From assembly GCA_934140355.1 (NCBI GenBank), contig CAKPBH010000002.1:1-61236 (forward strand): a stretch of DNA of 61,236 bases, written 5' to 3'. Origin of the DNA: an uncultured Bacilli bacterium. GTDB taxonomy: Bacteria; Bacillota_I; Bacilli_A; RF39; UBA660. Below the pieces are notes generated by a model, which had not been told where the DNA came from, did no database searches, and worked only from the letters and a program-made list of their open reading frames with translations. The position numbers were made by a program, and so were the translations under genes. Positions 155 to 12,023 of the stretch are shown piece by piece (positions within the stretch are counted from its first letter, which is position 1; each line of letters begins with the position of its first letter).

Positions 155-1945
155 TTACCCTTTTTTAATCAAACTTTTCCTTTTTCCTTTAGACGTCATA
201 GACTGCTGTTTAGAACCATCTTTTATCTCTAAACTAGAAGGCGATAAAAATTCCTGCTCTAATGTTTTCTTAATTTTAGGAAGAAGGTATCCATATAATT
301 GTCCAACTTGATTTTCTTTTATCTTTGAAAAAACAGGATGATTTAAGTCACCACCACATCTTAAAGTAATTATCTTCATCTCTTCTTCACTTAAATGATT
401 TAATACAAAATCAACTTGTTCTTTAGAATAAGGTTCCATTAATTGATAAATCGTTTTTAAATTTTGGGTTCGTTTTTTCTTCTTTTTTTGTAATTCTTTT
501 AAATTCTTAAGAGCTTGATCTGGATCTTGCATATATTCTGTAAAATAAGCAATTTGTTTTTCCTCTCTAATTTTTGCTAAGGCTCTTTCTTTAATTTGAC
601 GGATACCTTCACGACTCATCTGAAATTGCGCCCCTAACTCTCCTAAACTTAAAATAGGACCTCGAAAGCCATAACTCGATATTAATACTTCTTTTTCGAT
701 TAGAGTTAATGAACACGTATCTAACAGCGCTCTTGTTTTTGTAATCATGTCATGATTCACTACAATTTCTTCAGGAGATTCTTCAGTTGCAGGAATAAAA
801 TCTTCGATCTCTCTTTCATCTTCTTGTACTAATTTATTGATACTAGTTGTACCATCTTGAATCAACTGAAATCCTTTAAATTCTTCAACAACTACGGGAG
901 ATACCTCTAAATAAGTAGCAATCTCCTCAATTGTTGGTTCCCGATTTAACTTAAAACGCAAATGAGATACGGCTTTTTTATAAGTATTAATTTTGGCATA
1001 CATATGATCAGGAATTCTAATACTTCTACTTTTTTCTGTAATAGCAGCCGTAATAGCCGCTTTAATTCGATAAACCGCATAGCTTGAAAATTTAACATTC
1101 TTACTAGCATCATATTTTTCTACTGCTTTTATCAAACCAATATTACCTTCTTGAATTAAATCAAGAAGAGATAAACCATTTTGAGGATAGCGTTTTGCTA
1201 CACTAATGACTAATCTTAAATTGCTTTTAATAAAAGTTTGTCTAGCCTCTTCATTTCCTTGTAAAATTTGTTCCATTAATCTTTGCTCTTCTTCTTGGGA
1301 AAGTAAAGGAATATCTCCAATTTCTTTTAAGTATTTAACTAAAGTTTCTTCTGGCTCATAAGAAGTTTCCGCTTGTCTGTTTTTCTCCCTATTCACCTCT
1401 ATTTTTGTATCATTTAACAAGTAGTATGTATTGATGATATCAACTAATATATTATCTTTAAGCATTTTATCTAACTCCCCCATTGAAATCTGGGGATTAT
1501 ATTCACTAGAAATTACCGTTAAGGCCTCTTGACTTTTTTCATTACAAGCTAAAATTTCTATTAATTCATAAGAAGTTAAAGGATAATGATAGATACGAAG
1601 AAAAGAAGTTAAACCATACATATTTTCTAAAGCCATATTTAGAATATTACTTTCATGAAATCTTTTATTAATATAACGATTTATCACAACACCTGGCCGC
1701 CTCATCATCTCTTCTTCCGCTAATTTTGTTAGTTTTTGATTCAATTTTTCTTTGATCAAATCAAAATTTTCTTCTCTATTCTGCTCAAGTAATGCCATAG
1801 CCATTTTACTAACCTCTTGATAAAATTCTTCTTTTGAGAATATAAGATAATCAAATTTTTGATAAAGATCATCCACTATTAACTCTAACATTTGTGATAT
1901 TTGTTGTGGATTTAATTTACTTATTTTTTCCTTTAAAAAATTCAT
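155..1945 (-). CDS. Atypical long sigma-70 family RNA polymerase sigma factor (RpoD paralogue)
   Basis: 596 aa. Region 2 [20 protein letters not shown]. Region 2.3/2.4 FSSYAVYRIKAAITAAI. Region 3 SIRIPDHMYAKINTYKK. Region 4 LSLGELGAQFQMSREGIRQIKERALAKIR. Extra N-terminal extension of about 200 aa and C-terminal extension of about 110 aa. Confidence 0.8.
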   Translation of the reverse strand: MNFLKEKISKLNPQQISQMLELIVDDLYQKFDYLIFSKEEFYQEVSKMAMALLEQNREENFDLIKEKLNQKLTKLAEEEMMRRPGVVINRYINKRFHESNILNMALENMYGLTSFLRIYHYPLTSYELIEILACNEKSQEALTVISSEYNPQISMGELDKMLKDNILVDIINTYYLLNDTKIEVNREKNRQAETSYEPEETLVKYLKEIGDIPLLSQEEEQRLMEQILQGNEEARQTFIKSNLRLVISVAKRYPQNGLSLLDLIQEGNIGLIKAVEKYDASKNVKFSSYAVYRIKAAITAAITEKSRSIRIPDHMYAKINTYKKAVSHLRFKLNREPTIEEIATYLEVSPVVVEEFKGFQLIQDGTTSINKLVQEDEREIEDFIPATEESPEEIVVNHDMITKTRALLDTCSLTLIEKEVLISSYGFRGPILSLGELGAQFQMSREGIRQIKERALAKIREEKQIAYFTEYMQDPDQALKNLKELQKKKKKRTQNLKTIYQLMEPYSKEQVDFVLNHLSEEEMKIITLRCGGDLNHPVFSKIKENQVGQLYGYLLPKIKKTLEQEFLSPSSLEIKDGSKQQSMTSKGKRKSLIKKG

Positions 1946-2054: not shown

Positions 2055-2669
2055 CTATCCCCTTGGAATCTTCAAAATTTGACCAACACGCAAAAGATTG
2101 CTAGTTAAATTATTGTAACTTTTAATTTTATCTATAGTTGTATTGTATTTCTTAGCAATACTGTAAAGATTATCCCCACTTACTACTTTGTACGTCAAAT
2201 CAGTATTATTGTTTTGATTTGGAATCTTCAAAATCTGTCCAATACTCAAAAGATTAGAGTTTAATTGATTGAATTCTTTTAATTCATTAACAGTTGTATT
2301 GTATTTCTTAGCAATACTATATAAGCTATCTCCTGATTGAACAAGATAATTGATTGTACCATCACTATCTTCTTCACTACTAGTTGGTATTTTTAAAGTT
2401 TGATTAATATTTAAAAGATTGCTAGTTAAATTATTGTAACTTTTAATTTTATCTATAGTTGTATTGTATTTCTTAGCAATACTATATAAACTGTCCCCCT
2501 TTTTCACCGTATAAGAAATATACTTTTGACTTCCTTCTGTCTGAGTTGGTATTTTTAAAACTTGGTTAATACTTAAATTGTTTGAAGTCAAATGATTGAT
2601 TTGTTTTAATTCATCCACAGTTGTATTGTATTTCTTAGCAATACTATATAGACTATCTCCTGATACCAT
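2055..2669 (-). CDS. LysM-repeat protein fragment; 3-prime segment of the split amidase/LysM gene
   Basis: Begins MVSGDSLYSIAKKYNTT, i.e. inside a LysM domain. Three further complete LysM repeats follow (GDSLYSIAKKYNTT...LKIP). The ATG at 2667-2669 lies in element-derived DNA. Confidence 0.85.
   Translation of the reverse strand: MVSGDSLYSIAKKYNTTVDELKQINHLTSNNLSINQVLKIPTQTEGSQKYISYTVKKGDSLYSIAKKYNTTIDKIKSYNNLTSNLLNINQTLKIPTSSEEDSDGTINYLVQSGDSLYSIAKKYNTTVNELKEFNQLNSNLLSIGQILKIPNQNNNTDLTYKVVSGDNLYSIAKKYNTTIDKIKSYNNLTSNLLRVGQILKIPRG
2092..2484. repeat. 71-bp perfect direct repeat inside the LysM coding region (copies 2092-2162 and 2414-2484)
   Basis: aaaagattgctagttaaattattgtaacttttaattttatctatagttgtattgtatttcttagcaatact occurs twice, corresponding to LysM repeats 2 and 4. 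Confidence 0.85.
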
Positions 2670-2671
2670 TT

Positions 2672-4240
2672 TTATGGAACATTTTGAAAAGCAAAGAAAA
2701 TATCTATCGTTTTATCTTGATAAAGATCGATTTTATAAATTAAATTCATTAATAATACTCTAGTTGGATTATCGAATGATAAAAACTCATCAATATATTC
2801 TTCTAACTTTTCCTTATCTATCTCATTTTCATTGCTTGATCGATTGATTAATTCATCCATACTTCTTTTATTTTTATCTCTTTGTTGTTTTAAACTCTTA
2901 CTTATTCTTAAATATTGTTCTTCATCAATGATACCCCTTAGTTTATCCATATAAGTTTTATCTAAATTTTGAGTTAATTGATCATTTGCTATTTCTAAAC
3001 TTTTTAATTGTTTTTCTATTTTTACATCATGATCTTCAATTTCTATATTATTAATAGCACCTTTAATCTTATTTTTATCTAAATACTTTTTACAAACTTT
3101 TTTTATGTTATCTAAAATGACACTTTCTAATATTTCATAATTATTTGTATGTGTTGTACAAACATGATATTTCGAATATGTCCGATAATAATTGCAAATA
3201 GTATAACTTCTTCTTGTTTTATTTTGATATCGAATTGCTATTCTATGCCCACAATCACCACAATATAAAAGTCCATCTAATAAATAAGTTCTTTTCTTCT
3301 CTGGTCTTTTCACATTTTTAGGAAGTAATGATTGAACGTAATTAAAGGTATCTTTATCAATAATAGCCTCATGAGTATTTTCTACAATAATATAATCACT
3401 TATCTTATTTTTCACAACTTTTTTTAATTTATAATTTATCTTTTTAGTTTTACCTTGCACTGCATCACCTACATAAATTCTATTCGTTAAAATTGCCTTA
3501 ACTGTTGTATCAACCCACACCCCATATTCCTGAGAAATACAATTTCTATTTATACATTTCATATTCCATACATAGTTATAATAAGATGCCGGAGTTTTAA
3601 TTTTTCTTTTTGTTAATTCCCCCGCAATAAAATGATATGTATTACCTTTAAGTGCTAAATCAAAAATTAATTTAACAACACTTGCTTGTTCTTCATTTAT
3701 AATTAAATGATTTTTATTATTTGGATCTTTTTGATACCCAAATGGACATCTTCCCGACACGTATAATCCATCTTTCATCCTTGAATGCAGACTACTTTTA
3801 ATCTTTTTAGAAATATCTTTAGCATACATATCATTCATAATGGCTTTAAAAGGCGCTATATCATTATTAGTATTATCTATAAAAGTATCTATTCCATCAT
3901 CAATAGCAATATATCTAACATGATTATTGGGAAAATATTTTTCAATTAACTCTCCTGTACCAATATAATCTCTGCCTAATCTTGACATATCTTTAGTAAT
4001 AACCATATTAATTTTATTATCTTTAATATCTTTAATCATTCTAATAAACGCTGGCCTATCAAAATTAGTACCACTAAACCCATCATCAACATATTCATCA
4101 ACTACTTTATAATGATTCTCTTTCACATAACTACTAAGTAAAATTCTTTGACTAACAATACTATCCGATTTGTGCGTTAAATCATCTCTTGATAATCTAA
4201 GATAAAGCCCAACTTTAAAGCAATGATTCTCTTGCATCAA
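2672..4240 (-). CDS. Large serine recombinase (resolvase N-domain, recombinase domain, zinc ribbon, coiled coil)
   Basis: 522 aa. YLRLSRDD...SIVSQR (catalytic Ser region), DDGFSGTNFDRPAF, KDMSRLGRD, GRCPFGY, Cys cluster YCGDCGHRI...ICNYY...HVCTTH. SpoIVCA/phage-integrase-like layout. Confidence 0.9.
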   Translation of the reverse strand: MMQENHCFKVGLYLRLSRDDLTHKSDSIVSQRILLSSYVKENHYKVVDEYVDDGFSGTNFDRPAFIRMIKDIKDNKINMVITKDMSRLGRDYIGTGELIEKYFPNNHVRYIAIDDGIDTFIDNTNNDIAPFKAIMNDMYAKDISKKIKSSLHSRMKDGLYVSGRCPFGYQKDPNNKNHLIINEEQASVVKLIFDLALKGNTYHFIAGELTKRKIKTPASYYNYVWNMKCINRNCISQEYGVWVDTTVKAILTNRIYVGDAVQGKTKKINYKLKKVVKNKISDYIIVENTHEAIIDKDTFNYVQSLLPKNVKRPEKKRTYLLDGLLYCGDCGHRIAIRYQNKTRRSYTICNYYRTYSKYHVCTTHTNNYEILESVILDNIKKVCKKYLDKNKIKGAINNIEIEDHDVKIEKQLKSLEIANDQLTQNLDKTYMDKLRGIIDEEQYLRISKSLKQQRDKNKRSMDELINRSSNENEIDKEKLEEYIDEFLSFDNPTRVLLMNLIYKIDLYQDKTIDIFFAFQNVP

Positions 4241-4434
4241 TTAATTCTCCCTTTTTCTTGAGAATAATGCCTATTTTCAGAAGGCAATACTATCCTAAAT
4301 TTATCGCAAGTGATATTAAACCTTTGTTTAAATTCCATTTTTAATACTTCAGTGATTACTTCGTTTAAAGATTTAGCATTATCCTGAAATTTTAAATTAA
4401 CTTTATAATTAACCATAGAGTTTAATACCTCCAA
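4237..4434 (-). CDS. Small hypothetical protein upstream of and overlapping the recombinase gene (possible accessory or directionality factor)
   Basis: 4-nt overlap with the recombinase start. The likely real start is M7 at about 4416, preceded by GGAGG. No recognisable motif. Confidence 0.35.
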   Translation of the reverse strand: MEVLNSMVNYKVNLKFQDNAKSLNEVITEVLKMEFKQRFNITCDKFRIVLPSENRHYSQEKGRIN

Positions 4435-4561
4435 TTAATTCTATGGTTATGATTTTGGCTTTATGAATATTCCCTTTTCTCATAAATTTTCATGATAAAG
4501 TTCATCATCTTATTTTTCTTTTAAGGCACTAAAGCAAAAAAATCATAACCATAAGTTAATT

Positions 4562-5056
4562 TCAAATTGGAAGTATTTGAACATTATCTGGATAACCGCT
4601 CATTGCATCTATCAAAATATTTCTAACCTTATCCTGTGAAATATCATTATCAAGAGCAATTTGTTTAATATTATTACTTGCTTTCAAAAGATCTTTTCTT
4701 ATCTTAATTTCTAATGATTTAGAGATAGATTTTCTAGATAAATTTATATTTAAGTCCTCTAAAATTCTTTCATGACATTTTCTGCAAACAAACCTTCTTT
4801 TATATAGAATTAAATAGCATTTAAATTCTGCTATTTTATTATACTTAATTTTAATAGGTTTTAATCTATCATGCACTGATTTTGTATATCTATCACATTT
4901 AGGACATTTAATTTTAGAAACAGTACCTTGTAATGATATAATCTTTATTTTCTCATGATTTTCTACTTTTTCTTCAATTGATAATACCTTTACATTAGTA
5001 CCTTTTAACCCTATTAATTCTTTAACTTCTTTCATTATCACATTACTCCTTTGCAA
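4562..5056 (-). pseudogene. ISL3-family transposase, N-terminal fragment only (zinc finger and HTH; DDE domain missing)
   Basis: CPKCDRYTKSVHD...RRFVCRKCHERILEDL...RKSISKSLE...IALDNDISQDKVRNIL. Ends at ..ILPI*, where the DDE domain normally begins. 164 aa versus about 400 aa for intact ISL3 transposases. Confidence 0.7.
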
Positions 5057-5191
5057 GAATAATTAAAAATCAGCATACAAAACAGATTAAGAATACTACA
5101 TATTTTTTAAAAAATGTGATACTATAAAAATACATATGAAACTAATTTAATTATTCTGCAACTTAATTATATAATAGTTCATATGTATATT

Positions 5192-5222
5192 AAAAACAGA
5201 TGCCATTTTGACATCTGTTTTT
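5192..5222 (-). terminator. Rho-independent terminator downstream of the Doc operon (bidirectional hairpin)
   Basis: aaaaacagatg-ccattttga-catctgttttt: 8-bp perfect stem flanked by an A-run and a T-run. Confidence 0.6.
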
Positions 5223-5331
5223 ACTTTGAGCAATTCCCACTAACTCGTGTTGTTTCTTAATAAGTTGTTATATCAGATTTTACCAGATGATTTTATTTTT
5301 TGCTAATACATATATAAACATTTATATTTAG

Positions 5332-5760
5332 TTAATCTCTTTTTTTTGAGACATTACCAATAATCTTAGATTTGAAACATTCCCAGCTTTGTTCATCACC
5401 ATTACTTGCAATTGTAGCCATCGCTTCAAATAGTTCTTCTTCACTTAAATTAATTTCCATTCCGTTAATTTGATATGTCATAATCATAGCCATTAAACCA
5501 GTTCTTTTATTAACATTTTTAAAGCAATGCGTAGTAGCAATATTATACCCCAATCTACATGCCTTTTCTTCTATTGTTGGATAAACATCTTGGCCAAAAA
5601 AACTTGCAAAAATAGAATTAACTGCCCCTTGAAATAAAGCCCCTGTATTATCAATAAAACCTAATGCCTCGTTATCTTCGCTAGCAGCTGCTAATTTGTC
5701 ATGAATGAGCAAAATATCCTCTTCAGATAAAAACTCTCCTACATACCCTTCCATTTTCAT
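5332..5760 (-). CDS. doc: Doc (death-on-curing) family Fic-fold toxin
   Basis: 142 aa. Doc-type motif HCFKNVNKRTGL (HxFx[DN]xNKRT). Start overlaps the upstream stop (TAATG). Confidence 0.85.
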   Translation of the reverse strand: MKMEGYVGEFLSEEDILLIHDKLAAASEDNEALGFIDNTGALFQGAVNSIFASFFGQDVYPTIEEKACRLGYNIATTHCFKNVNKRTGLMAMIMTYQINGMEINLSEEELFEAMATIASNGDEQSWECFKSKIIGNVSKKRD

Positions 5761-6317
5761 TATTTTAGTCTCCTTAAAAGATTATTATATTTCTTTATGT
5801 TATTATTTAATAAATTATTAAATGTTTCATTATTAATTTTTGATTTATTGATAAAAGGTTTCAAGTCATTAAAATCTTTTAAATAATTATTAGATATTCC
5901 ATCATAATTATTTTCATACAATATATCAGCCAACTCAAAATCTTTATTTACACTCTTCTCAAGTATCTTAACAATTTCTTCATCACTCATTTTTTTTGAT
6001 TTTAAATAACTTAATATTATACTAAAACGGTCATAATCTAACATAATTGGAAACCATTTTATTATAGTAGAATAATCAAAATCGGCTAGTGAAGTATAAA
6101 AATTAGCACTTTTTGATAGACTATTGATGGATATTTTGTTAACGAAATCATAATTATTTTTTAAAATAAACTCTATAGTTCTATCATCAAGAAATTCTCT
6201 AAGTATCGCAATTCTTTTATTTAATTTTGTTTCTAATAATTCATTTAGTGAAATATTATTTATATTTTCTAAATTATTTCCCATTACTATCCCTCCAAAC
6301 TGTTTTAACTGTAACAT
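5760..6317 (-). CDS. Hypothetical protein translationally coupled to Doc (candidate non-canonical antitoxin)
   Basis: Likely start is M12 at about 6284, preceded by GGAGGG. Helix-rich, Asn/Lys-rich, about 174 aa. No Phd/YefM-like motif recognised. 1-nt stop/start overlap with doc. Confidence 0.4.
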   Translation of the reverse strand: MLQLKQFGGIVMGNNLENINNISLNELLETKLNKRIAILREFLDDRTIEFILKNNYDFVNKISINSLSKSANFYTSLADFDYSTIIKWFPIMLDYDRFSIILSYLKSKKMSDEEIVKILEKSVNKDFELADILYENNYDGISNNYLKDFNDLKPFINKSKINNETFNNLLNNNIKKYNNLLRRLK

Positions 6318-6599
6318 ATTTATTAAAATTTGTCAAAATAATTCTAGCAATGGATAGTGTAAAATTGTTTTGACTGTACAAAAAAAGAGTTTACCTCATT
6401 AATTCAAGATATAGTGAAAGAAAAAGAATAATTGAAAGATATAAAAACTATCTTATAAAATATTGAAAATAGTTTAAAAATACATTGAACATTAAAGTAT
6501 GTTCTTCTGTAGAATCACATATCTCACATAATGTAGCAAAATATTTTTCATATGAATAATAGAAATGATAACGCTATGAAATATCATTATTTTTTATCA

Positions 6600-7907
6600 T
6601 CATCTTAATAAATCTAATATATCTTCATATTTAACTATCATTTTTTCTTGAGTTTTCGTATCTTCTATTTCATAATGATTACCATCAAATTGATTCCCTA
6701 ATATGATCATTTTAGGCGTTCCTAATACAGAAACATCTTTTATTCTATTACCAATACTCAAATTTTCTCTATCATCAATGATAGCATTAATATTATTCTG
6801 TAGTAAATAATGATATAGCCTTTCTCCCTCTTTTTGATTTTTTTCACTATAAATTATTTGAACCTTGTATGGAGCAATGTCATATGGTAGTGAAAATCCT
6901 TTGATTTTATCATTTTCTCTAATTACATTACTCTCGATTAAACAAGCAATAATTCTTCCTAAACCAATTCCATAACATCCCATATAATATGGTTTTTTCT
7001 CTCCATTTTCATCTATATAGAAAAGCCCCATACTATTAGAATATTTTGTTCCCAGTTGAAAATTATTTCCTAACTCAACAGTACTATATTCTTTCAGATT
7101 TTTAATATCACTTACTCCTAATTGTTTAAGATATTCATCTTTATTATCAAACGCTAAAACTTCTTTATTAATACCAATATCATTTTTCTCATCATAAAGC
7201 GTTTTATCTTCTCCCAAATTAGTGATTGCTTGAAACTCCTCAGCAACTTTACCACCAATAACCCCATTATCACTAATAGTTGGTATAATCTTAATTCCAA
7301 GTCTTTTAAATATATTTAAATATACCTGATGCATTAATTCGTACGTTTTTTGCATATCTTCTTCTGTTTTATCAAAAGAATAAGCATCCATCATAACAAA
7401 TGTTCTTGGTCTAAATAGATAACCTCTAGCTCTAATTTCTTTTCTAAATTTTTCGCCAATTTGATAATAAATAGCAGGCAAATTTTTATAAGAAGATAAT
7501 CTATTATTTCCAAATATAGTAGCACATTCCTCTGCAGTTGGCGCAAGTCCATATTCTCCTAAATTATTACTTATGGTAAACATGATATCCCCCTCTTTAG
7601 TGTAAGCATCCCATCTACCAGATTGTTCCCATATTTTTCTTGGCTGAATCTTTGGAAATTCTACTTGAATACACCCTGCCTTATCTAACTCATCAATAAT
7701 AATATTTTCTACTACTCTTTCTAGTTTTGTCCATAAATTGCCATAACCATAAATCCCACTTTCAAATTGATATAACTCTCCTAGTTTCATCAAAATATCT
7801 TGACCAGAATAATTAGTATCAATATCATTTAAATTAATTTTTTTAATATTTAATCTGCTTAATCTCATTTTACTCATCCTTTCTTCAACAAAAAAAGAAT
7901 GACACAT
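6600..7907 (-). CDS. proS: Prolyl-tRNA synthetase, bacterial-like but lacking the INS editing domain
   Basis: Class II motif 2 region FRKEIRARGYLFRPRTFVMMDAYSF. Motif 3 GCYGIGLGRIIACLIE. Anticodon-binding C-terminus. Likely start is M14 (about 7868) after AAAGGA, giving 422 aa. The upstream T-box carries a CCU specifier. Confidence 0.85.
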   Translation of the reverse strand: MCHSFFVEERMSKMRLSRLNIKKINLNDIDTNYSGQDILMKLGELYQFESGIYGYGNLWTKLERVVENIIIDELDKAGCIQVEFPKIQPRKIWEQSGRWDAYTKEGDIMFTISNNLGEYGLAPTAEECATIFGNNRLSSYKNLPAIYYQIGEKFRKEIRARGYLFRPRTFVMMDAYSFDKTEEDMQKTYELMHQVYLNIFKRLGIKIIPTISDNGVIGGKVAEEFQAITNLGEDKTLYDEKNDIGINKEVLAFDNKDEYLKQLGVSDIKNLKEYSTVELGNNFQLGTKYSNSMGLFYIDENGEKKPYYMGCYGIGLGRIIACLIESNVIRENDKIKGFSLPYDIAPYKVQIIYSEKNQKEGERLYHYLLQNNINAIIDDRENLSIGNRIKDVSVLGTPKMIILGNQFDGNHYEIEDTKTQEKMIVKYEDILDLLR

Positions 7908-8095
7908 AAGGAGTCATAAAGACGGTGCCATCCTTTTATTTTACTTAATTACGATAACGGCTATTTCACCGGAAATGTTTTCATTTCACTCCGAAGGTAG
8001 GAATTAAATAGTATCATAACTTGTTCACACTATACCAAGCTCACTTTTATGCTTAACCAATTAATATTCCTTCATCACTGATTTGACCTTATTGT
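7885..8095 (-). promoter_or_regulatory. T-box riboswitch leader with Pro (CCU) specifier, controlling proS
   Basis: Read on the minus strand: GA/K-turn region cagtgatgaagga; distal loop tagtgtgaac; specifier aattCCTAccttcgg (about 7999-8001); F-box ccgtta (about 7955-7960); T-box aaaggatggcaccgtc (about 7921-7936); then hairpin atgac-N9-gtcat followed by a T-run. Coordinates are +/-1 nt. Confidence 0.7.
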
Positions 8096-8204
8096 ATCAC
8101 ATTATATTGTTACTCACAAGCCCCTTTATACAAATAAGTATAAATTCATGATTATTTCTTTCTCACATGCCTACTCTTATATTTTTATATTTTGCATAAA
8201 TGAT

Positions 8205-9065
8205 TTATCTCCACTCTTCAAATCCCATTTTATTTTCAAAATTAGTAATAATAACTTCCTCTACCTTTCCTCTTTTTCTTCCACTAGCACTAATACTTCT
8301 TTTTGCTTCGATGATATGAATATGAAAATCTTTATATAATTCATTTACTAAAGTAGTATTATGATTAGATAACATGACATAACAGCCTCTATCGGATAGT
8401 TCTTTAAATACTTTAGCAAGCCTTCTTTGTTCTTCTTTCCCAAAACCTTCTTCAGTATAACTATTAAATGTTTTAGTATCTGAATCGTATGGTGGATCAA
8501 AATAAATGAAATCTCCCTTTTTAGCATCTTTTACAGATTCTTCAAAATCAACCGATAGCACCTTGACATCATTATAATTTAAATACCCACATATCACCCC
8601 TAAATTTTGTCCTTCATAAGTATTTACTTTAGTTTTCTTTCCAAAAGGAACATTAAATTCATTTTTACTGTTAACTCTATATAATCCATTAAAACATGAT
8701 TTATTTAAATAAATAGTGCGAGCGGCTCTTTTCACATCCGTTAGTCTATTGAATTTCTTTTTATCTCTATCTAAATTTCTTATTTCATAATAATACTTCT
8801 CCGAATGTTCTGCTTCATGATGGTTCAATTCTTTGCACATCGCTTCAAATTTTTGCCCATCCTTAATACATTCATAAACATTCATCAATTCTTTGTTAGA
8901 ATCATTAATTACTGCCTTTTTAGGAGATAACTCAAACAACAATGCGCCTCCCCCTACAAATGGTTCATAATAAGTATTAAACTCGTCTGGAACATATTGT
9001 TTTAATTTATCTATTATCTGTCTTTTTCCTCCTGCCCATTTTACAAATGGTTTTCCTTTAATCAT
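8205..9065 (-). CDS. dam: DNA adenine methyltransferase, Dam family (GATC-type), orphan
   Basis: KPFVKWAGGKRQII, EPFVGGGALLFEL, catalytic FIYFDPPY. No adjacent endonuclease gene. Confidence 0.9.
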   Translation of the reverse strand: MIKGKPFVKWAGGKRQIIDKLKQYVPDEFNTYYEPFVGGGALLFELSPKKAVINDSNKELMNVYECIKDGQKFEAMCKELNHHEAEHSEKYYYEIRNLDRDKKKFNRLTDVKRAARTIYLNKSCFNGLYRVNSKNEFNVPFGKKTKVNTYEGQNLGVICGYLNYNDVKVLSVDFEESVKDAKKGDFIYFDPPYDSDTKTFNSYTEEGFGKEEQRRLAKVFKELSDRGCYVMLSNHNTTLVNELYKDFHIHIIEAKRSISASGRKRGKVEEVIITNFENKMGFEEWR

Positions 9066-9312
9066 TCCTATTCACCTTATCTCTCTATCACTAATCTTAC
9101 TCAATTACCTTTTTTAAATGCTTAAAAAATTATTGATTTTTTAAGAACTTATTTCCAAATTTTTCTAAAATTACCCTAAGGAAAAAATTTTTCCTCATCA
9201 CTTTCTTAAGAATAATTCCAAAAGCTTTCTATCATTATACCATGCAAAAAGACATTTTTCTTCAAAATGCCTTAATTTTTGTTATATTTTCTGGAATATT
9301 ATTCATGATTTC

Positions 9313-9942
9313 CTATTTATTTCCCATAAAAAGAGTATCACCTGATTTAACAATATAATAACTACTATCAATAGGTTGATAAGGAATATTTAAATAACTT
9401 GTCAGCGCAATAACAATCGCTTCACCTACTTCTTTTAGATTATTTTTTAAAAAATTAGCTTCCTTCTCATTATCAATATTTCCATAATAAATAATAATAC
9501 TTTCATTATTTTTAGTATCTCTGATTAATTGATTATAATCAAGAGCCGTATCACTAGGCAATCTTCTTTGATAGTATTTTTCCACTTTTAAACCAACAGT
9601 ATTTAATTCATCCGCTATTTTTTTCGCTAAAGTACTACTATTTCTAAGAGCATAAACAATTTCAGCATTCTCTCCCCCAGCAGTCAAGGCATTAGAAATA
9701 ACAATAACATCATTTCCTTTTCCATAAGTTGATGTAATTCGACTAACCCGATCATCCATATTTATAGTCTCATCACTATCTCTAGTTAAAGAAGTAGGAA
9801 CACCATAAGCACGAAGACGATCATAAATATATTTACTTAACTCTAAATTATAATTTTTTTCCGTAATTCCATTAACACTACTTCCAATATCTTCCCCACC
9901 ACGATAAGCATCAATAACAACTTTCTTATCTACTCTATCCAT
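9313..9942 (-). CDS. Amidase_3-like (N-acetylmuramoyl-L-alanine amidase fold) fragment; 5-prime segment of the split gene
   Basis: VVIDAYRGGEDIGSS..GITEKNYNLELS...VISNALTAGGEN resembles CwlD-type amidases, but the His zinc ligands appear to be replaced. Ends SSYYIVKSGD (start of a LysM), then 7 element-encoded residues TLFMGNK*. No signal peptide. Confidence 0.75.
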   Translation of the reverse strand: MDRVDKKVVIDAYRGGEDIGSSVNGITEKNYNLELSKYIYDRLRAYGVPTSLTRDSDETINMDDRVSRITSTYGKGNDVIVISNALTAGGENAEIVYALRNSSTLAKKIADELNTVGLKVEKYYQRRLPSDTALDYNQLIRDTKNNESIIIYYGNIDNEKEANFLKNNLKEVGEAIVIALTSYLNIPYQPIDSSYYIVKSGDTLFMGNK

Positions 9943-9985
9943 AAAATATCACCTAATGTATTTTATGTTTTTTCAAAGAGAAAGG

Positions 9986-10921
9986 TTATATTTCAATAGT
10001 TGTTTCATCAATAAAGTGATAACTCGTTTTATATTTTAATTCCCTCATCAAACGAAATAATGCATCATCTTTAGCTTTAGCTTCTAACATAATATCAATA
10101 GAAATAGGATATTTTTTTATCATTTCTAAAAATAAAATAAAAGCATCACTATCAATATAATCATTATGACTTCTTATTTCTTTTTTGTTTTTAGGACTAC
10201 TAAAATGAATTTTAGGAGGAATATTTTTATTTTTCCAAGTTAAAAATACTTGTTCTAAATAATCTTCCAGCGGCTCTTCTGTCGGATTGCAACAGTGATG
10301 ATGATAATCTAAAACAACAGGAATATTAAGTTTAGAAGAAAGATAAAGACAATCCTTAATATTAAAAATTTTATCATCATTTTCAATAGCAATAATTTCT
10401 TGTAAATGTTTGGGAAGTTTTTTAAAAGTATTAATAAATCTAGATAAAGATAAATCTTTACCAAAGGTATTTCCCCCTACATGAAGAAGTAAAATTTTTT
10501 CATCAATCTTCATTGCTTTCAACAATTGGTAATGATATTCCAAAAGAGCAATGGATGAAGCAATAACCTCTTTTCTAGTACTATTTAAAACACAATATTG
10601 ACTGATATGAAAATCAAAACGCATCTTAGTTTTCTTCAAAATTTCTTCTATTTTTTTATAAAACGATAGATAAGGGGTAATGTACGAAAAAGAAACAGAT
10701 GGTGCAGTAGCAAGAGGAATTAAACTAGATGAAGCTCGATAGAAATGAATGTTATTTCTTTGATTATAAATTAATGTTTCGATTAAAGCATTAAGGTTAG
10801 ATTTAATAATCCGATCTAACTTTTCATAGTTTTGTTCCTTCTGAAAAACAGTTAGTGGATAAGGGGTAGAAGTAGAAGATTTAATAGAGGAACTAATAGC
10901 AACATAACCTAAGCGTATCAT
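9986..10921 (-). CDS. uvsE: UV damage endonuclease UvsE/UvdE
   Basis: Collinear with B. subtilis UvsE from memory: IRLGYV, FYRASSSLIPLAT, LLHVGG, IENDDK, LDYHHH, KIHFSSPK, IRSHNDYID, IMLEAKAKDDALFRLM. Confidence 0.9.
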   Translation of the reverse strand: MIRLGYVAISSSIKSSTSTPYPLTVFQKEQNYEKLDRIIKSNLNALIETLIYNQRNNIHFYRASSSLIPLATAPSVSFSYITPYLSFYKKIEEILKKTKMRFDFHISQYCVLNSTRKEVIASSIALLEYHYQLLKAMKIDEKILLLHVGGNTFGKDLSLSRFINTFKKLPKHLQEIIAIENDDKIFNIKDCLYLSSKLNIPVVLDYHHHCCNPTEEPLEDYLEQVFLTWKNKNIPPKIHFSSPKNKKEIRSHNDYIDSDAFILFLEMIKKYPISIDIMLEAKAKDDALFRLMRELKYKTSYHFIDETTIEI

Positions 10922-11126: not shown

Positions 11127-12023
11127 TTATTTCTTCTCTGTCTTAGGAAAGTAATCCCCTATTAATTTATCTGTTGTAAAGATATAATCATAAAATGCCC
11201 TTATTTCTTTACATAAAAGCAATTCTTCTTTTTGAAATTCTAATTTTTTAGGAATCGAAATTAAACAAAAGAACAGTGCTTTTTCCTCAGGAAGCATTGG
11301 ATAATGCCCCTCATAATTACGAAGTAAATTATAAAAATCAAATTCTTTATAATATTTTTGATAAAAAATAACTAAGTCATAAACAGGAATATCTCTTTTA
11401 CTTTTGCCCCAACTAATAAAATAAGGTTTAGTTTCTAATAAGTAATGTTCTAAACTTAAATTGTTATGAATTTGTGTAATACGAACTCTTTTCTTTTCCT
11501 CAATAATTTTATACCAATTTTCAATTTGATTTTGACAATAATGCATAGATTGAAAAAGTTTAGATATGTTGCGAATAAAAAGATAATGTGCTGGAGACAT
11601 ATACTCTTCTTGCTCAATTAATTCTGCAATATCTTGATAATAATTCATCAAATAATCTAATCTTTCTAAAATTTTTTCATATATCTTTTTATAAGTATCA
11701 TCATCTATATCTTTATAAAAAGTAGTTTTGCTATGTAAAAGAGTTAATAATTTAATAATATCAGCAGCTTTTTCCTCCTTAGGAAGAGGAGTATCTTCAA
11801 TATAATGATAAATTTCATAGTTTTTAGTCTTATAGAGAATATGAGGAAAATAATCAAAAGATCTAGACTTTAAATACTTATATAAAGGTTCTAGATCATG
11901 ATTTTTTCTCTTAATAACAAAAGTTTGCGATCCGGTATCAATAATTCGAATATGATTTCGAATGGTAATTTTTTGGGTGGTAATATTTAGTTTTGAGAAT
12001 AATTCTCTTAATTCCTTATTCAT
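11127..12023 (-). CDS. CotS/YsxE-family spore coat protein (kinase-like fold)
   Basis: 298 aa phosphotransferase-like layout (..FVIKRKN.., LTLLHSKT, IHNNLSLEHYLL). Overlaps the upstream spoVID/sipL-like gene, as in the B. subtilis spoVID-ysxE operon. Confidence 0.55.
   Translation of the reverse strand: MNKELRELFSKLNITTQKITIRNHIRIIDTGSQTFVIKRKNHDLEPLYKYLKSRSFDYFPHILYKTKNYEIYHYIEDTPLPKEEKAADIIKLLTLLHSKTTFYKDIDDDTYKKIYEKILERLDYLMNYYQDIAELIEQEEYMSPAHYLFIRNISKLFQSMHYCQNQIENWYKIIEEKKRVRITQIHNNLSLEHYLLETKPYFISWGKSKRDIPVYDLVIFYQKYYKEFDFYNLLRNYEGHYPMLPEEKALFFCLISIPKKLEFQKEELLLCKEIRAFYDYIFTTDKLIGDYFPKTEKK

Follow-up and report, generated by a model that had tools for sequence, protein, structure and literature searches.

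What splits a gene for an amidase-LysM protein in an uncultured Bacilli bacterium, and could the split be undone? The question arises in a stretch of 61,236 nucleotides (contig CAKPBH010000002.1; the whole stretch is called the window here), where two minus-strand open reading frames (ORFs) flank a 6.68-kb element that carries a large serine recombinase gene. The original prediction for this locus had taken the two ORFs for pieces of one gene interrupted inside a LysM domain, and the ends, strands and spacing that it gave all hold. The ORF at 9313..9942(-) encodes 209 aa with an Amidase_3 match (Pfam, E 1.8e-18), its C-terminus reading ...SSYYIVKSGD and then TLFMGNK and a stop codon; the ORF at 2055..2669(-) encodes 204 aa, begins with MVSGDSLYSIAKKY... 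and has four LysM matches. Our best reading, which we consider probable, is that a mobile LysM-targeting element sits in a mother-cell gene and that excision in the terminal mother cell would be the most economical arrangement.

The two junctions have ATCAGG (minus strand) in common, at 9346-9341 and at 2664-2659, spaced by 6,682 bp, and the element spans ~2661-9340 of the window plus one copy of the CC/GG crossover, which gives the same 6,682 bp. Within the first of the LysM domains that a 401-aa gene encodes, the insertion point falls among the codons for ...V-K-S-G|D-S-L-Y..., and it divides this host gene as follows.

9341..9942, minus strand: 5' part of the host gene, codons 1-200, a degenerate Amidase_3 domain and strand 1 of a LysM domain, up to the GG
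2055..2660, minus strand: 3' part of the host gene, the remainder of LysM 1, LysM 2-4 and the stop codon

Joining the halves in silico reproduced the predicted in-frame product, an ORF of 1,206 nt and 401 aa with Amidase_3 and four LysM domains, and the junctions confirmed that element DNA supplies both the ATG from which the 3' fragment starts and the stop codon that ends the 5' fragment. Uninterrupted orthologues of the joined ORF were found in number: many intact 401-aa proteins match it at 82-83% identity over 100% of its length, and the junction YYIVKSGDSLYSIAKKYNTT is identical in these proteins and in the joined ORF. One of these intact proteins comes from an uninterrupted syntenic locus (L001/L002), where the genes follow in the order spoVID-like, ysxE-like, UvdE and amidase-LysM. 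Precise excision would thus rebuild a gene that its orthologues validate. The split alleles recur as exact copies on three contigs and in two further members at >=90% identity, and their presence on several independent contigs rules out an assembly artefact.

The enzyme that could account for such a precise insertion is encoded by the element itself.

2672..4237, minus strand: large serine recombinase, 521 aa, with the Pfam domains Resolvase, Recombinase and Zn_ribbon_recom

The recombinase ORF is listed as 2672..4240(-), and the ATG start conserved in its family gives 2672-4237. PF00239, PF07508 and PF13408 all score above cut-off, and the catalytic motif YLRLSRDD is retained. We also considered whether the recombinase is decaying and ruled this out, since 17 of 264 near-invariant columns differ in it versus 15, 13 and 12 in other members and the catalytic motif is intact. 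As originally noted, the gene lies at the extreme edge of the element, its stop codon 11 nt from the crossover. The best solved-structure match to the catalytic domain is TnpX (E 4e-26), and identity to TndX is 35.6% over 98% of the length.

Reconstruction of the window attP gave CCATAAAAATGGTATCA-GG-TGATACTCTTTTTATGG, in which 15 of 17 positions form an inverted repeat around GG. An inverted repeat around a central dinucleotide is the expected shape of a serine-integrase attP; the repeat fixes the crossover at GG, in support of the CC that the original prediction had placed on the plus strand. The two hybrid sites of the window have only the core in common.

9313..9342, minus strand: attL, GG crossover at 9342-9341 and element P' arm at 9340-9316, with the tail TLFMGNK and stop codon
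2659..2685, minus strand: attR, element P arm at 2685-2661 (overlapping the recombinase stop) and GG at 2660-2659, with the ATG of the 3' fragment

Within the P arm, at 2661-2669(-), the window has AAAAATGG versus AAAAATTG in most of the family. This change creates an in-frame ATG, so that a truncated 204-aa protein of four LysM domains could be translated without excision; the start codon of the 3' fragment is absent from most other family members.

How widespread is this arrangement? Among 5.8 billion proteins, 120 clusters (formed at 90% identity) were >=74% identical to the recombinase, some of them holding hundreds of members, and a scan of one genome per species returned 522 relatives confirmed by tblastn, the best 80 of which are 70-83% identical. 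By these results the window recombinase belongs, as a divergent member, to a family that is very large and yet tightly conserved. Nearly all hosts are gut metagenome-assembled genomes (human, rabbit, ruminant and mouse) labelled Bacilli, Tenericutes, Mycoplasmatota or Erysipelotrichaceae, with a few labelled Oscillospiraceae or Clostridium. The elements range from 2,324 bp, which is an operon of a small ORF and the recombinase gene plus ~0.5 kb, to 7.9 kb.

The ends of these elements revealed what the family recognizes. In ~65 of 86 loci the right end reads ...AAAAATGTTACATAAAAATTGTATC(A/T)-GG-nGAT... within ~17 nt of the recombinase stop and is directly followed by a LysM domain that lacks strand 1, and 54 loci have a matching left end, GGnGATACAATTTTTATGGGGAATAATGAG, farther upstream. 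In-silico excision of the 54 paired loci gave an in-frame Y-x-V-x-x-G|D-(S/T)-L in 52. The family attP is nearly invariant, the attB consensus tTATAc.GT.aAAa.a-GG-aGATAc.tTaT..agtATtGC is the coding sequence of the LysM motif, and all 50 attB/attP pairs have GG as their crossover, as the window does. The junction falls anywhere from residue 10 to residue 417 of the restored proteins, and different LysM repeats are therefore hit. About half of the restored proteins are Amidase_3-LysM orthologues, and the others are PG_binding_1-LysM, LysM-only, small 2-3-LysM, GH25-LysM and Peptidase_M23-LysM proteins. By this comparison, the target of the family is the LysM-coding motif itself and not one gene. 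An element dedicated to the split gene, in the manner of the skin architecture that the original prediction had cited, was not borne out, since relatives occupy several unrelated LysM genes including those of phage-type lysins.

The recombinases were also compared with their target genes. Recombinase identity ranges from 74 to 98% (mean 85%) versus 37 to 90% (mean 51%) for the target amidase domain, and the two are weakly correlated (Spearman 0.32). Three pairs illustrate the range.

L018 and L039: recombinase identity 91%, amidase-domain identity 44%
L042 and L046: recombinase identity 98.5%, amidase-domain identity 72%
Window and L039: recombinase identity 76%, amidase-domain identity 88%

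The interrupted L039 differs from the intact L001 by a dS of 0.07-0.11 and its reconstructed attB equals the L001 sequence, which indicates that some members of one species-level lineage have the element and others lack it. L005, L006 and L007 share an identical recombinase at a host-gene dS of 0.05-0.06, so these insertions are younger than the divergence of their hosts. For this reason dN/dS on the 3' fragments, which we had tried as a test of function (omega ~0.1 for L005-L007 versus L057), is confounded and was set aside. Together, these identities indicate that the family moves horizontally. They bear on one alternative in particular, a domesticated, vertically inherited switch dedicated to the split gene in the strict sense of skin and sigK. 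Such a switch would fit the position in the first LysM domain, which is common to the window, L039, L003, L066 and L067, a host gene of mother-cell type, and an element fixed in the assemblies of the species at hand. We nevertheless consider it improbable, given a recombinase tree that is incongruent with the host gene, a sister lineage in which L039 is interrupted but L001 and many 401-aa alleles are intact, insertions in different LysM repeats and in unrelated genes, and cargo that differs from element to element. The skin-like reading of the original prediction thus stands in part: the serine-recombinase insertion, the precise rebuild and the mother-cell-type gene were retained, and the dedicated one-off element gave way to a mobile multi-target family.

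Two further arrangements were seen. L020 (6726-13123) runs from attL through a recombinase gene to an intact attP-like site (11510-11543), and from there through 1.6 kb that hold no recombinase gene to attR. A 1,380-bp metagenome contig (L107) holds an attP-like site (137-170) flanked by non-recombinase ORFs. Together they suggest cassettes that lack a recombinase of their own and are moved in trans, or tandem arrays.

Two copies of the element lie on IMG/VR contigs (L089/L090, 7908-11582) as 3.2-kb insertions in an M23-LysM lysin gene, which adjoins a holin-like ORF and has phage tail genes a few kb upstream. An intact GH25-CW_7-LysM endolysin gene ~5 kb upstream carries no insertion. Riding in phage genomes could be a route of the elements between hosts. 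These copies, together with a match of the recombinase to a PHROG integrase family, naturally raise the possibility that the window element is a defective prophage remnant, or else a chimera of assembly or binning. However, the ORFs of the window element include no phage structural, packaging, replication or lysis genes in Pfam and PHROGs scans, and on the IMG/VR contigs it is the 3.2-kb element that interrupts a lysin gene. Several independent contigs carry the same split alleles, and the family is found with exact att sites in at least 80 genomes. We rejected a prophage origin for the lack of phage genes, and this alternative as a whole appears very improbable indeed.

What kind of gene has been interrupted? 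The original prediction had pointed to coat-like genes and uvsE within 0-3 kb, and the neighbours 44 bp to 2.9 kb upstream of the split gene are indeed UvdE (Pfam), a ysxE-like gene (NCBIfam, below cut-off) and a spoVID-like gene with the Pfam domains SPOCS_spoVID-N and LysM. A promoter-like motif lies directly upstream of the split gene.

9959..9986, minus strand: promoter of sigma-K type for the split gene, AC-N17-CATAAAATA; a Shine-Dalgarno sequence (AGGTGA) and the ATG (9942) come next

The sequence ACCTTTCTCTTTGAAAAAACATAAAATA (9986-9959) reads AC-N17-CATAnnnTA, and AC-N16/17-CATAnnnTA is the sigma-K consensus of B. subtilis. The same motif is kept in L001 and L039 despite saturated synonymous sites relative to the window. 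Across the family, the full motif lies upstream of 12 of 45 targets versus 15 of 1,263 background ORFs (odds ratio 30, p 7e-12). When the control was restricted to 761 ORFs that follow a Shine-Dalgarno sequence, 23 had the motif, 14 of them Amidase_3-LysM genes and 6 CwlJ/SleB-like; outside the amidase-LysM genes it is thus nearly confined to the CwlJ/SleB-like ones. CwlJ/SleB-like hydrolases are a known class of sporulation gene, and their carrying the motif provides an internal positive control for its use as a marker of such genes. CwlJ/SleB-like Hydrolase_2 genes in L041, L047, L049, L068, L070 and L086 have this AC-N16/17-CATAnnnTA motif, and in several genomes a CwlJ/SleB-like gene adjoins the LysM target gene (downstream in L003, L004 and L008). 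None of the 45 restored ORFs has a hydrophobic, signal-peptide-like N-terminus, in support of the earlier claim that the restored protein has no signal peptide. Because of the sigma-K-type promoter, the spoVID and ysxE neighbours and the lack of a signal peptide, the split gene most likely encodes a coat or cortex protein of the spore that is made late in the mother cell.

An alignment of the Amidase_3 domain (alignment A1) showed that neither zinc-binding histidine is left in the split gene and its closest orthologues, nor is the catalytic glutamate: AYRGG, ISNAL and IIYYGN in this clade align with GHGG, IHYNA and LVECAF of Cwp6. Distant family members retain the catalytic residues, P0033 for instance having GHGG, SNHVN and IVEYGF. 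Its conservation between species (82-83% identity) despite the lost residues gives the domain the look of a pseudo-amidase without catalytic function, and the loss of the zinc ligands and glutamate suggests that the product is probably a structural peptidoglycan-binding protein rather than an enzyme.

Behind the GD of the split LysM strand most elements encode the tail GD-TIFMGNNE*, the window TLFMGNK*, and the left end continues with two features.

9249..9273, minus strand: terminator-like hairpin and T-run, a predicted fold with a 10-bp stem, weak (z -1.4)
9234..9242, minus strand: extended -10 promoter TGGTATAAT of sigma-A type, which faces the cargo and recurs at this position in most related elements

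AT-rich left-end hairpins with covarying stems are found in many related elements. A simple terminator scan made no call on the left-end hairpin because the stem is AT-rich; the hairpin is terminator-like and would stop transcripts that enter from the host gene. Read-through from the host promoter as the driver of the recombinase operon was ruled out, since a stop codon, a covarying hairpin with T-run and TGGTATAAT follow attL in most elements. The operon itself begins with a small ORF.

4237..4416, minus strand: conserved small ORF, 59 aa from its ATG (MVNYKVNLKF...), its stop overlapping the recombinase ATG (ATGA)
4417..4480, minus strand: family-conserved region before the operon of small ORF and recombinase gene, including CATAGAATT and GGAGG (4446-4428)

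In 69 of the 70 loci examined, a conserved ORF of ~59 aa (MVKYKVNLKFKENGKSLNEIITEVLKIE...) precedes the recombinase gene; it has no Pfam or PHROG match. By analogy with SprB, which has 58 aa, and with GirX, it is a candidate recombination directionality factor. GirX, the small factor of the gin element, has 42 aa (PMC5595907). In an alignment of 73 non-redundant loci, ~65 nt upstream of the small ORF are conserved across the family, with CATAGAATT in 61 loci and CATAnnnT[AT] in all 73. CATAGAATT resembles the -10 element (CATA...) of mother-cell sigma factors. A sigma-E or sigma-K label for the operon promoter was tried and dropped, as it yielded near-misses only (CATAGAATT, AC at 18 nt, TAATATT 20 nt upstream).

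How, then, would the gene be restored, and when? The insertion at the GG in the LysM 1 codons is a conservative, site-specific one, made on our best reading by the recombinase of the element. Recombination of attL with attR by the same enzyme, with the small ORF as candidate directionality factor, would release a 6.68-kb circle, and full-length host protein would be made only in cells after excision. The most economical timing would be the terminally differentiating mother cell, the spore germ line keeping the element, as a selfish element would pay least in a gene that is needed only in a dying cell if it excised there. Mother-cell coat genes and phage lysins would both be genes of cells about to die. 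Mother-cell-specific excision, as originally proposed, is plausible on these grounds; excision timed by sporulation we regard as possible, though somewhat short of an even call. Restoration of the ORF follows automatically from conservative recombination and is thus no evidence for programmed excision.

Several observations weigh against a mobile element that leaves a mother-cell gene in the terminal cell. The exact joined protein is absent from a collection of 15 billion proteins, all five of five related assemblies are interrupted, and no attB or attP junction from the window organism was seen. The presence of phage-type lysins among the targets indicates that target choice follows sequence and not sporulation function. 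CATAGAATT misses the strict sigma-K -10, its AC spacing is 18 nt, and TAGAAT fits sigma-A as well; moreover, the sigma-factor consensus is that of B. subtilis, borrowed here for uncultured Bacilli. For TnpX and TndX, the closest characterized enzymes, neither a directionality factor nor developmental control is known. Free or phage-borne attP gave no match in IMG/VR, and in metagenome contigs attP gave the single match on L107, which has no recombinase gene or proof of circularity and lends no support to excised circles.

The same evidence has to be weighed for a purely selfish element in the style of Tn4451 and Tn5397, that is, a permanent knockout that enters any sequence similar to the LysM motif, follows no developmental programme and excises sporadically in order to move, and whose host tolerates the loss of the gene. 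The closest characterized relatives of the recombinase, TnpX and TndX, fit such an element, as do the horizontal transfer, the many target genes, the presence/absence polymorphism between near-identical hosts and the defence- or toxin-type cargo described below; the left-end terminator and the sigma-A-type promoter of the element would insulate it from the host gene. However, both halves of the target are still open and in frame in 52 of 54 loci, the targets have no signal peptides and show an excess of sigma-K-type promoters, both being features of terminal-cell genes, translation of the small ORF is coupled to that of the recombinase gene, in keeping with a directionality factor, and the element is retained in five of five assemblies of the window species. 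A permanent knockout therefore seems unlikely to us, while remaining a serious competitor of the mother-cell reading. A broader form of the mother-cell reading, which we put forward tentatively and hold to be rather doubtful, is a portable 'terminal-cell safe harbour', in which minimal elements home to the DNA for LysM strand 1 and the GD[ST]L turn; in these gut spore formers with small genomes, that motif would lie in dying-cell genes, those of mother-cell coat or cortex proteins and of phage lysins. The operon with its invariant CATAGAAT-type -10 would be switched on in the terminal cell, where the gene would be rebuilt, and the element with its defence cargo would persist in the germ line, a general strategy unlike a single skin-type switch.

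Among the gene-intervening elements of spore formers, the window element is most like gin. The gin element of Bacillus cereus ATCC10987 has 28.6 kb, three recombinases and one target, gerE, and its sporulation-specific excision was shown experimentally (PMC5595907). Both are non-phage elements that intervene in a gene of a spore former, with a large serine recombinase, a small motif-less factor (here a candidate) and an inverted-repeat attP around a central dinucleotide, and in both precise excision restores a mother-cell gene (here a probable one, restored in silico). Unlike gin, the window element has 6.7 kb (2.3-7.9 kb across the family), its target is a domain motif in many genes, and its small ORF overlaps the recombinase start. 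In skin (SpoIVCA/sigK), SPbeta (SprA-SprB/spsM), skinCd, vfbin, vrin and yin (yabG), excision also rebuilds a mother-cell gene (PMC4191935, PMC5025042, PMC5499854, PMC10747680). These, like the window element on its probable reading, are large serine recombinase elements in sporulation genes whose excision rebuilds an ORF, but they are prophages or remnants with one locus each, whereas the window element lacks phage genes, is mobile and has many targets. In agreement with the original prediction, which did not recognize the host gene as a known target, LysM genes are unmentioned among the targets in the papers searched, a literature coverage that is incomplete.

With Tn4451/Tn4453 (TnpX) and Tn5397 (TndX) the window element shares its small size, the recombinase gene at the extreme end and the occurrence of several end-like target sites. 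It differs from these transposons in a recombinase identity of only ~35%, in its crossover (GG versus GA), in the conserved small upstream ORF, in that no Mob/oriT gene was found and no DUF4368 match reported, and in its target, a specific ~40-bp motif that encodes a protein domain. Like the multi-targeting large serine recombinases of Durrant et al. 2022 (PMC10083194), the family has several target-gene clusters and a shared attB motif; LysM is unmentioned in the text and supplements of that study that were searched. The many targets of the LysM family arise because attB coincides with a repeated, conserved domain motif and not because of relaxed specificity. A literature search, of incomplete coverage, found no paper on a LysM-targeting recombinase element, and the family of compact LysM-targeting elements is apparently undescribed so far. 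It is distinct from the known systems in its domain-motif target across many genes, its extreme compactness and its wide spread in uncultured gut Bacilli.

Between the left-end promoter and the small ORF, the window element carries the following cargo.

8205..9065, minus strand: D12-class (Dam/DpnM-like) DNA adenine methyltransferase (Pfam MethyltransfD12, E 3e-63)
6600..7907, minus strand: bacterial-type prolyl-tRNA synthetase (ProRS) without an editing domain (TIGR00409, 327 bits, cut-off 306.7)
5760..6317, minus strand: 185-aa protein with no family match, its stop overlapping the start of the Doc-like gene
5332..5760, minus strand: Fic/Doc-like toxin (Pfam Fic, E 4.5e-10; PHROG Doc-like toxin, E 5.6e-20)
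4562..5056, minus strand: ISL3-family transposase remnant, 164 aa, the N-terminal zinc-ribbon part (Pfam Zn_ribbon_ISL3; PHROG positions 19-138 of 421)

Homologues of the Dam/DpnM-like methylase occur in 10 of the 54 elements, a DpnII endonuclease in 8 and an N6_N4 methylase in 8; the three are components of a DpnII (GATC) restriction-modification cassette, of which the lone methylase of the window may be a remnant. ProRS cargo was found in the window element only, among the 54. It has the Pfam domains tRNA-synt_2b and HGTP_anticodon and belongs to a 90%-identity cluster of 938 members, and as a second ProRS it might make the host resistant or immune to a toxin aimed at ProRS. An archaeal-type ProRS gene lies near the locus in L001, a related genome. 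The 185-aa protein may be the antitoxin of the Doc-like toxin, because its stop overlaps the start of the toxin gene; the pair at 5332-6317(-) has a toxin-antitoxin layout, but the upstream partner is unusually long. Pfam and PHROGs scans found no relaxase or Mob domain among the window cargo. Elsewhere in the family RhuM, AIPR, Abi_2 and TIR genes are carried, and the cargo is variable and largely of defence type.

Downstream of the split gene, at 155-1945(-), lies a gene for a sigma-70-family protein of 596 aa whose N-terminus is extended by ~200 residues, and every NCBIfam equivalog match to it is below cut-off. L001 shows no synteny here, having a phosphoglucomutase gene in its place.

For annotation, these results mean that split LysM genes in metagenome-assembled genomes are likely recorded as pseudogenes or fragments. 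The family also shows defence genes (the DpnII cassette, AIPR, Abi_2, TIR and RhuM) carried on tiny recombinase vehicles, and its ~50 matched attB/attP pairs, its candidate directionality factor and elements down to 2.3 kb offer material for the study of site recognition and for tool building. If the mother-cell reading is true, the split gene would be a new entry on the short list of sporulation genes interrupted by excisable elements, one in which the target is a domain-coding motif common to many genes rather than a single locus. Given that the family is present in hundreds of uncultured gut Bacilli species, rearrangement of sporulation genes may be common in the gut microbiota.

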